Positions 3,187 through 3,793 of a DNA stretch of 64,000 bases are shown here, in pieces. The stretch is from Bryobacteraceae bacterium. Lineage in GTDB: Bacteria; Acidobacteriota; Terriglobia; Bryobacterales; Bryobacteraceae. The notes beneath the pieces are model-generated. The model did no database searches. It was given only the letters and a program-made list of their open reading frames with translations, and was not told the origin of the DNA. The stretch spans positions 2,609 to 66,608 of the forward strand of contig DATJNO010000096.1 in NCBI GenBank assembly GCA_035508055.1. The letters are read 5' to 3'. How positions within the stretch are numbered: position 1 is the stretch's first letter; each line of letters starts with the position of its first letter. The translations under genes and the position numbers were made by a program.

Positions 3187-3294
3187 TCGTCTTCACGCCG
3201 GAGTTCGGTTCTGAGTTCGATGCTGCACCCCACCCCGTATTCGGCCGGAGTCAGCTACACATCATATACTGCTTTTCCGCGGTGCGCAGCGGTA

Positions 3295-3309
3295 GGTAGT
3301 GTCCTAAAG
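3295..3309. repeat. left terminal inverted repeat of the GIY-YIG cassette
   Basis: GGTAGTGTCCTAAAG, preceded immediately by CAGCGGTA. Confidence 0.85.
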
Positions 3310-3373
3310 GTGTCGGAGGCAATCCTGAGGCCCGTTCTCGAGTTACTCTGAGGTCCGTGATATCATCGCGCCC

Positions 3374-3703
3374 ATGAGCGATGGCAGGACGAAGGTCATC
3401 TACAAAATCACCTACCCCAACGGCAAAATCTACGTGGGGCAGGATCTCACCGGCAGCATCGGCTACTTTGGAAGTCCGAATAGCAAGCGCGTAGAGGCGG
3501 ACTTCACACCGGAACAGGCGCGCGATTTCACACTTCGCAAGCAAATTTTATGGGAGTCAAAAGACGCGACGGATGAAGAGGTCGACGCCAAAGAGATCGA
3601 ATTCATCCTGGCCCTGCGCTCTAACGATCCGGCGATTGGATACAACGTGTCAGTTGCTCCGCAATCACGGTTCAAGCGAAAATCTGCATCAACGCGGCTT
3701 TAG
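3374..3703 (+). CDS. stand-alone GIY-YIG nuclease domain protein (109 aa)
   Basis: [16 protein letters not shown] shows GIY..YIG spacing of about 10 aa. Downstream Arg and Glu residues and a terminal ..AIGYN motif are present. No DNA-binding extension is visible. Confidence 0.7.
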
Positions 3704-3712
3704 GACACTACC
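3698..3712. repeat. right terminal inverted repeat of the GIY-YIG cassette
   Basis: CTTTAGGACACTACC is the exact reverse complement of 3295-3309. It is followed immediately by CAGCGGTA and contains the ORF stop codon TAG (3701-3703). Confidence 0.85.
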
Positions 3713-3793
3713 CAGCGGTAGGCAAGGGCGGCGCTATCCGACGGCCGGCGCGGCTAGCGCTTGCACCTGCCGGATTGCATCCATGCGGTGCTC

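Follow-up and report, generated by a model that had tools for sequence, protein, structure and literature searches.

The DNA analysed here, termed the window, is a 64,000-nucleotide stretch of a Bryobacteraceae contig (DATJNO010000096.1) and contains a 418-bp cassette in which one gene, predicted to encode a GIY-YIG nuclease-like domain, is enclosed by terminal inverted repeats (TIRs). The cassette is located in a 607-bp spacer between two minus-strand genes, which encode an MxaJ-like periplasmic binding protein of a pyrroloquinoline quinone (PQQ)-dehydrogenase operon (positions 2380–3186) and a dienelactone hydrolase family protein (3794–4507). The inverted repeat GGTAGTGTCCTAAAG occupies positions 3295–3309, and its exact reverse complement occupies positions 3698–3712, forming a perfect pair of 15 out of 15 nucleotides. 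These two sites are the only matches to the repeat in the window, even when three mismatches are allowed. The left TIR as a whole extends over positions 3295–3312 (plus strand), and the right TIR comprises 28 nt (TGCATCAACGCGGCTTTAGGACACTACC; 3685–3712, minus strand), of which the outer 15 nt are perfect. The distance between the outer TIR ends is 418 bp, and both tips of the cassette read GGTAGTG and thus have the form GGnnnTG. An 8-bp direct repeat, CAGCGGTA, adjoins both TIRs on the outside (left copy, 3287–3294; right copy, 3713–3720).

The only open reading frame (ORF) with homologues inside the TIRs (3374–3703, plus strand) encodes 109 amino acids, and its TAG stop codon (3701–3703) falls within the right TIR. 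Two shorter, overlapping ORFs lie on the minus strand. Pfam and NCBIfam scans of the 109-residue ORF produced no transposase match. The window element is not itself an insertion sequence (IS) because an IS1-type DDE transposase is absent from its inside. An earlier note on this DNA had described the exact 15-bp TIRs, the 109-residue ORF with its stop codon in the right repeat and the abutting 8-mer, and all of these details and their coordinates are correct.

The direct repeat can formally be extended to 10 bp (CAGCGGTAGG; 3287–3296 and 3713–3722) because GG is both the beginning of the TIR and the continuation of the target. The true duplication length in the window is likely 8 bp, a value that is preferred because the unambiguous junctions of two related elements described below (L101 and L205) give 8 bp. 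Chance alone would be expected to give approximately 0.04 perfect 15-nt inverted pairs with a separation of up to 600 nt in each window (64,000 × 600/4^15), and the abutting 8-nt direct repeat multiplies this expectation by 4^-8.

An empty allele that resolved the insertion site came to light when the proteins flanking the cassette were looked up by exact sequence. The compared contigs are derived from sister samples, with the window represented by k141_1904648 of the ENA metagenome ERZ27256562 and the empty allele (L095) by k141_1805401 of ERZ27256608. The 65-kb L095 contig encodes an identical MxaJ-like protein and contains the same dienelactone hydrolase and mxaJ genes with only 181 bp between them. 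It reads ...GCGGTGCGCAGCGGTAGGCAAGGGCGG..., with ...GCGCAGCGGTAGGCAAGG... at its core, and thus presents an empty site with one copy of CAGCGGTA, across which the two contigs are identical. The flanks of the window and L095 share 99.88–99.95% identity over 5.4 kb, with five substitutions, and the sole structural difference is an additional 426 bp in the window, equal to the 418-bp unit plus 8 bp. The cassette is therefore a precise and recent insertion that is polymorphic between strains. The TIRs and the duplication, which the earlier note had taken as the footprint of a transposition event, are borne out as such by L095, and the empty site that it had predicted is present in this near-identical strain. 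Two Logan contigs from another sample, L097 and L094 (SRR8879133), end or begin exactly at CAGCGGTAGG; these breakpoints are consistent with an assembly-graph fork at the insertion polymorphism, with filled and empty alleles occurring together in SRR8879133.

The empty allele also bears on two explanations that do not involve transposition. In one, the unit is a homing-endonuclease cassette that spreads through double-strand-break repair; in the other, the repeats merely form a stem, in RNA or DNA, that encloses an ordinary resident gene. The predicted structure of the protein does match those of homing-endonuclease catalytic domains, but homing would leave neither TIRs nor a target duplication, and the L095 comparison reveals a clean 8-bp duplication without co-converted flanks. 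The view of a structural stem around a resident gene, as well as a chance arrangement of the repeats, falls because L095 holds the empty site. The earlier note had named as refutation an ordinary conserved gene with a structural stem that exists as the only copy; the gene is instead absent from a 99.9%-identical strain, and a second insertion with a different duplication is found in L101. Homing and a resident stem are already refuted by these two observations, and we regard them as exceedingly improbable.

L101 is one of the close relatives obtained from JGI metagenomes. It contains the TIR GGTGGTGTCCTAAAGCTGCGTTGACGG, which is nearly identical to that of the window, at positions 403–429 and an inverted partner at positions 815–841, which pair over 27 nt with three mismatches. 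An exact 8-bp duplication, CGAGCGCC, is found at positions 395–402 and 842–849; it cannot be extended, which gives 8 bp as the duplication length of the family, and the site is unrelated to that of the window. The L101 ORF is broken by an in-frame TAA codon. L101 is thus a decaying copy of the same cassette type that represents an independent insertion.

Complete elements with matching ends were traced by scanning IMG/VR for the end sequence, which led to L187/L189; two relatives of its transposase were then retrieved with their flanks (L199–L204 and L205). These elements belong to an IS1-family clade that is common in Acidobacteria, with complete elements of 2.1–3.9 kb, TIRs of the form GGYAGTGTCCTAAAnnTGCGTTGA, 8-bp duplications and a DDE transposase of 311–314 residues. 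In L187/L189, perfect 28-bp TIRs, GGTAGTGTCCTAAAAGTGCGTTGATGGC, delimit a 2.96-kb element that encloses a 311-residue protein, and the right TIR of the window matches this TIR at 23 of 28 positions. The 311-residue protein passes the Pfam model PF03400 (DDE_Tnp_IS1; 34.9 bits against a cut-off of 24.1) and matches the NCBIfam model NF033558, 'IS1 family transposase', with an E value of 1.9e-28 (99.7 bits; cut-off, 100). It has at least 8,000 relatives, which bear the JGI/NCBI name 'IS1 family transposase' and include proteins from Bryobacteraceae and other Acidobacteria.

The first of these relatives is a 3,883-bp element (L199–L204) that occurs in the Bryobacteraceae metagenome-assembled genome (MAG) GCA_050011295.1 and in several metagenomes. 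Its TIRs are GGTAGTGTCCTAAAACTGCGTTGATCGG (left) and GGTAGTGTCCTAAAGGTGCGTTGATCC (right), and the right one is identical to the window TIR at 15 of 15 positions and to the left end of the window, up to the terminal GGTG, at 18 of 18 positions. The flanks of this element are paired crosswise, such that in L199 and in L200–L203 the left and right flanks come from different sites. This arrangement reflects either a chimeric assembly across the repeat or recombination between two copies. From the swapped flanks of the two sites, 8-bp duplications of AGGCGAGC and GGCGCTTT were reconstructed for L199/L200. A further element of 2,108 bp, L205, displays a perfect 8-bp duplication, CCCGGTTG.

IS1-family target duplications are typically 8–9 bp long (ISfinder). 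The duplication spans 8 bp in the window, L101, L205 and the two reconstructed L199/L200 sites, and an element described below (L070) exhibits agreement at seven of eight positions. The ends of the window cassette and the length of its duplication are those of an IS1-family clade that is present in Bryobacteraceae. Ends of the GGnnnTG form have been reported for the IS1 and IS6 families (PMC6807381). A resemblance to IS6/IS26 ends (10 of 15 positions to GGCACTGTTGCAAAG) was dropped once IS1-family transposases appeared between matching ends.

Based on these comparisons, the 418-bp unit is most probably a transposase-less derivative of an IS1-family element, that is, a mobile insertion cassette (MIC) with a GIY-YIG passenger that is presumably moved in trans. 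In the proposed mechanism, the cassette would retain both TIRs that are recognized by the transposase, the gene for which would have been lost or never present. A full-length IS1-type element located elsewhere in the genome would supply a DDE transposase, which would bind both ends and insert the cassette between the dienelactone hydrolase and mxaJ-like genes. Staggered cuts 8 bp apart, followed by repair, would then generate the CAGCGGTA duplication. We infer that mobilization occurs in trans and that the GIY-YIG protein takes no part in the movement. The earlier note had offered a miniature inverted-repeat transposable element (MITE) that captured the ORF, a homing cassette and a novel transposon type. 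The first option fits best, with IS1-family ends that would be served by a DDE transposase, whereas the other two are unsupported because the protein family at large lacks such repeats and a matching transposase occurs in the same bacterial family.

The GIY-YIG gene accompanies a transposase gene in L070 and L208. L070, from an Alphaproteobacteria MAG, was picked out by a tblastn search of the fetched loci with the IS1-type transposase. Its element (743–3323) is bounded by an 18–19-nt TIR, GGTAGTGGYAAAGTTTGAA, and the flanking 8-mers, CGGAGGTG and CTGAGGTG, agree at seven of eight positions. The element contains an IS1-type transposase, an ORF with a P63C domain and the GIY-YIG gene. Seven nucleotides separate the stop codon of this gene from the right TIR, an arrangement similar to that of the window. 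Given that L070 holds both the gene and the transposase, IS1-type elements of at least two phyla carry the GIY-YIG gene as a passenger, and retention of nothing but the ends and this gene leaves a cassette like that of the window. L208 (Ga0435267_01138249) is a short, cut contig in which the left end is unseen. It contains an ORF for an IS1595-type DDE transposase (PF12762; 11–1114) that stops 10 nt before the conserved promoter block (see below) of a 93%-identical GIY-YIG gene, and a right end of the same type follows.

Several observations weigh against a passenger that is moved by an IS1-type transposase in trans. No IS1-type transposase gene was detected in the 64-kb window by tblastn, and L187, despite its perfect TIRs, lacks a target duplication. 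In L208, an IS1595-type transposase accompanies a right end of this type, and the same end type may serve, or may have been recombined onto, a second DDE family. Moreover, most of the Acidobacterial relatives keep the right end alone, and the recurrence of the gene at the right end of different element types leaves room for a functional link between the protein and the element.

A recognizable right end is located 3' of the gene in L001, L005, L011, L014, L015, L100, L102, L208 and L209. No left-end partner was found in the flanking DNA examined, which covers 0.7–3.5 kb for all of these loci except the truncated L208. Decay is the simplest explanation for the loci with only a right end, and one-ended events may provide an alternative. 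Neutral flanks would be unalignable because the synonymous divergence among the Acidobacterial relatives is so high. In L100, L102 and L015, a different unknown ORF of 91–106 residues lies between the GIY-YIG gene and the right end. Two other candidate units were rejected: a 13-nt inverted pair in L005, located within the coding tail, was dismissed as a chance match, and two gene copies in one MAG (L049/L050) belong to a 4.7-kb duplicated block and define no small unit.

The recurrent position of the gene raises the alternative that the GIY-YIG protein is an accessory factor of IS1/IS1595-type elements, with a DDE transposase still required in trans. Nicking or cutting of the second strand might be its role, or it might introduce a break that promotes spread. 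This explanation draws on the outward-reading orientation of the ORF and its location at the right end or close to it in the window, L101, L070, L208, L100, L102 and L015, and on the strong purifying selection suggested by pN/pS values (ratios of the proportions of non-synonymous and synonymous differences) of 0.05–0.19. It is nonetheless opposed by three complete IS1-type elements that have the same ends but lack the gene (L187, L199/L200 and L205). In addition, an IS1-type transposase was found by tblastn near the gene in only two of approximately 160 family loci, and the gene also resides in phages, on plasmids and beside restriction genes. Outside the Acidobacterial clade and L070, the minimal tip motif CAYYACC is not enriched downstream of the family ORFs (10 loci compared with 6–9 in controls). 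An accessory role is therefore considered unlikely. A stronger version, which we judge to be equally doubtful, depicts the protein as a portable helper that IS1/IS1595-type elements keep at one end, forming a two-component DDE and GIY-YIG mobility system. Such a helper might nick or cleave donor or target DNA and thereby alter the transposition outcome or drive the element into empty alleles.

The GIY-YIG assignment of the passenger protein is primarily structural. The window protein has no Pfam match at an E value of 1 or below, its only NCBIfam match is TIGR01453 (E value of 0.18), and PHROGs and PADLOC returned nothing significant. Comparisons with PDB sequences, using both single-sequence and profile searches, found nothing. 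An affinity for GIY-YIG is detectable in the relatives, since PF01541 weakly matches 12 of 85 diverse family members (best E value of 6e-4) and some members carry the PGAP label 'GIY-YIG nuclease family protein'. The AlphaFold model of the window protein (predicted local distance difference test score, 84) contains secondary structure elements in the order β-β-α-α-β-α, corresponding to the α/β fold of GIY-YIG domains. Foldseek comparison of the model with the PDB gave only noise, and comparison with viral structures (BFVD) gave 44 matches at E values of 1e-3 or below, the best with an E value of 1e-9 and a template modelling score of 0.69. The BFVD matches that have a specific functional name are all GIY-YIG or intron-associated endonucleases, except for one 'Terminase-like family' entry, and the top match is a family member from mycobacteriophage Gaia.

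Residues Y10, Y20, G22, E74/E76 and N91 are invariant or nearly invariant in the family, and the spacing of 15 between E76 and N91 equals that between E75 and N90 of I-TevI. An arginine residue is absent from the canonical place after the YIG motif, and R50 and R55 are conserved instead. In an hhalign comparison of the family profile with I-TevI, the β hairpin alone was aligned, with a probability of 3%. A stand-alone, divergent GIY-YIG catalytic domain (core residues 7–91) is a fair description of the fold predicted for the ORF product, a putative nuclease. The model and the matches to viral structures also support the claim in the earlier note that the protein is a bare GIY-YIG domain without a DNA-binding module.

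These features bear on the alternative of an autonomous transposon of a new type, in which the GIY-YIG protein would itself recognize the TIRs, excise the unit and integrate it. The ORF is the only one with homologues between the repeats, and members of the family are found in different phyla and in varying contexts, as might suit such an element. However, elements with these ends and the 8-bp duplication encode DDE transposases, and the protein consists of a catalytic domain of approximately 85 residues without a DNA-binding module. GIY-YIG enzymes are hydrolytic nucleases that are not known to have strand-transfer activity, and an 85-residue hydrolytic nuclease domain without a DNA-binding part is unlikely to act as a recombinase. 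Furthermore, most family loci lack flanking repeats. Exact and mismatch-tolerant scans of approximately 159 non-redundant family loci revealed no TIR pair with an abutting 8-bp duplication besides that of L101. The other pairs in the family are weak, with 10–12 nt and 5–6-bp repeats, apart from the 18-nt pair of L070 with its 7/8 duplication, and the loci of the 94%- and 86%-identical proteins (L001 and L005, respectively) lack an intact TIR pair and have no left end. A literature search retrieved no paper in which a GIY-YIG protein drives a bacterial TIR element. An autonomous GIY-YIG transposon is thus very unlikely, and the transposase-less IS1-family derivative is retained as the preferred explanation.

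The protein family extends well beyond the cassette. It comprises 3,925 clusters at 90% identity and 1,087 clusters at 50% identity and is present in 533 of 185,579 GTDB species, including archaea (Methanocella, Methanothrix, Bathyarchaeia and Altiarchaeota). Members are 65–75% identical across bacterial and archaeal phyla over an 85-residue core. Comparison of the window gene with its Acidobacterial relatives gave the pN/pS values cited above at pS values of 0.5–0.7, indicating at the sequence level that the gene is under strong purifying selection within Acidobacteria. No universal neighbour of the gene was found across 80 genome loci. The gene also occurs on plasmids, in phages, beside Mrr-type restriction genes and beside genes for canonical GIY-YIG proteins, with fusions to the latter. 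Such a canonical protein (PF01541; E value of 2e-11) adjoins or is fused to the family member in L027, L034, L035, L042, L071 (approximately 3341–3727), P0138 and P0144, and an Mrr-type type IV restriction enzyme lies beside the family member in six proteobacterial or acidobacterial loci, for example at 2062–2988 in L022. Such restriction and GIY-YIG neighbours hint at defence-island or nuclease-partner contexts. Tandem two-domain versions of the protein are represented by P0006, P0072, P0079 and P0126.

Upstream of the ORF, the cassette contains a putative promoter block. The sequence TGATATCAT (3358–3366, plus strand) ends 7 nt before the ATG start codon and resembles an extended −10 box. 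The window shares the conserved block GTGATATCATCGCGCCC(ATG) with L001, L010, L100, L102 and L208, and L011, L015 and L209 contain variants of it. The sequences upstream of this block differ among the Acidobacterial copies, and similarity starts sharply at the block. As judged from this conservation, TGATATCAT is probably an extended −10 box that drives a leaderless mRNA. A simple sigma-70 scan identified no full promoter upstream of the ORF, and a scan of viral contigs for the conserved block gave no matches. A 6-bp hairpin can be formed by CATCGC (3364–3369) and GCGATG (3378–3383), with the start codon in the loop.

On the host side, the mxaJ-like gene heads its PQQ-dehydrogenase operon, and the cassette was inserted 101 nt upstream of the start of this gene. 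The closest MxaJ relatives of the window protein carry Bryobacteraceae labels. A conserved block, AAAAGnAGTATATGATGTGTA (3253–3283, reverse strand), is found upstream of mxaJ and is common to the Bryobacteraceae orthologues L090–L092; the cassette landed just distal to it. These three orthologues (91–92% identity) were also considered as a source of an empty site and were discarded, as they have three different upstream neighbours and no empty site. The spacer upstream of mxaJ is a synteny breakpoint because the upstream gene differs in every 91–92% orthologue examined.

The complete IS1-type elements hold variable small passenger ORFs. One of these ORFs encodes approximately 95–105 residues with the motif GG(Q/L/M)KTAERGSEYF, belongs to no Pfam family and is located just inside one end (L200, 1372–1662; L205, 974–1258; L187, 7374–7691; L193, 1592–1879 and 4287–4592). 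P63C-domain proteins are also recurrent passengers (L070, 1621–2865; L184, 5532–6575, the latter assigned by motif alone). In IMG/VR contigs, the same end additionally occurs as directly repeated pairs that are 2.7 kb or 594 nt apart (L193, 1935–1951 and 4649–4665; L212, 8595 and 9189; L214, 8–31 and 602–625). Solo ends in these contigs (for example, L184, 4998–5021) are positioned approximately 30–45 nt upstream of MerR/excisionase-like genes, without a transposase in the contig DNA examined.

For uncultured soil Acidobacteria, the window offers a clean natural case of recent insertion, with the filled and the empty allele each present in strains that are 99.9% identical. It also records the transport of small passenger genes by an IS1-type clade. 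A nuclease-like gene can bear a transposition footprint without a new transposase being involved; the matching DDE element surfaced here only through a search for the ends and not for the gene. What is new concerns mainly the passenger family and the recurrence of its members at the element end. This family is widespread and strongly constrained, has no curated model or known function and could merit biochemical study. If the helper proposal were true, it would assign a function to a large, unannotated and extremely conserved GIY-YIG family.

The cassette can be compared with four types of known systems. MICs are defined by inverted repeats, the lack of a transposase, a target duplication and mobilization in trans (PMC3913671). 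Like MIC231 of Bacillus cereus and the qnrD 'mic' of Proteeae plasmids, the window cassette has IS repeats that bracket a passenger, no transposase and a target duplication. It differs from MIC231 in its derivation, which is from an Acidobacterial IS1-type clade and not from IS231 (IS4 family). Compared with known MICs, the window cassette is very small, with 418 bp and one 109-residue gene whose stop codon falls in the TIR, and its passenger is a nuclease-like domain rather than a metabolic or resistance gene. Moreover, mobilization in trans is part of the MIC concept, whereas for the window cassette it is what we infer.

The single-ORF IS1-family elements with passengers, which we take to be the 'ISMhu11'-type subgroup of ISfinder, share with the cassette the GGTAGTG ends, an 8-bp duplication and a TIR of approximately 25–28 bp. 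Unlike these elements, the cassette lacks a transposase, and its left end fits the consensus over only 18 nt. The passenger protein resembles GIY-YIG homing endonucleases of the I-TevI/Seg type in its predicted fold, IYKI...IYVG motifs, conserved glutamate and C-terminal GYN sequence at I-TevI-like spacing. It differs from them in that it has no linker or DNA-binding domain, its R50 and R55 residues are off the canonical spacing, and it falls below the Pfam and PDB sequence thresholds with no Foldseek match in the PDB. Its gene also resides in an intergenic spacer, outside any intron or conserved target gene. Finally, like MITEs, the cassette is short, TIR-bounded, non-autonomous and strain-polymorphic with a target duplication, but unlike MITEs, which are usually defined as non-coding, it carries an intact gene that is under selection.

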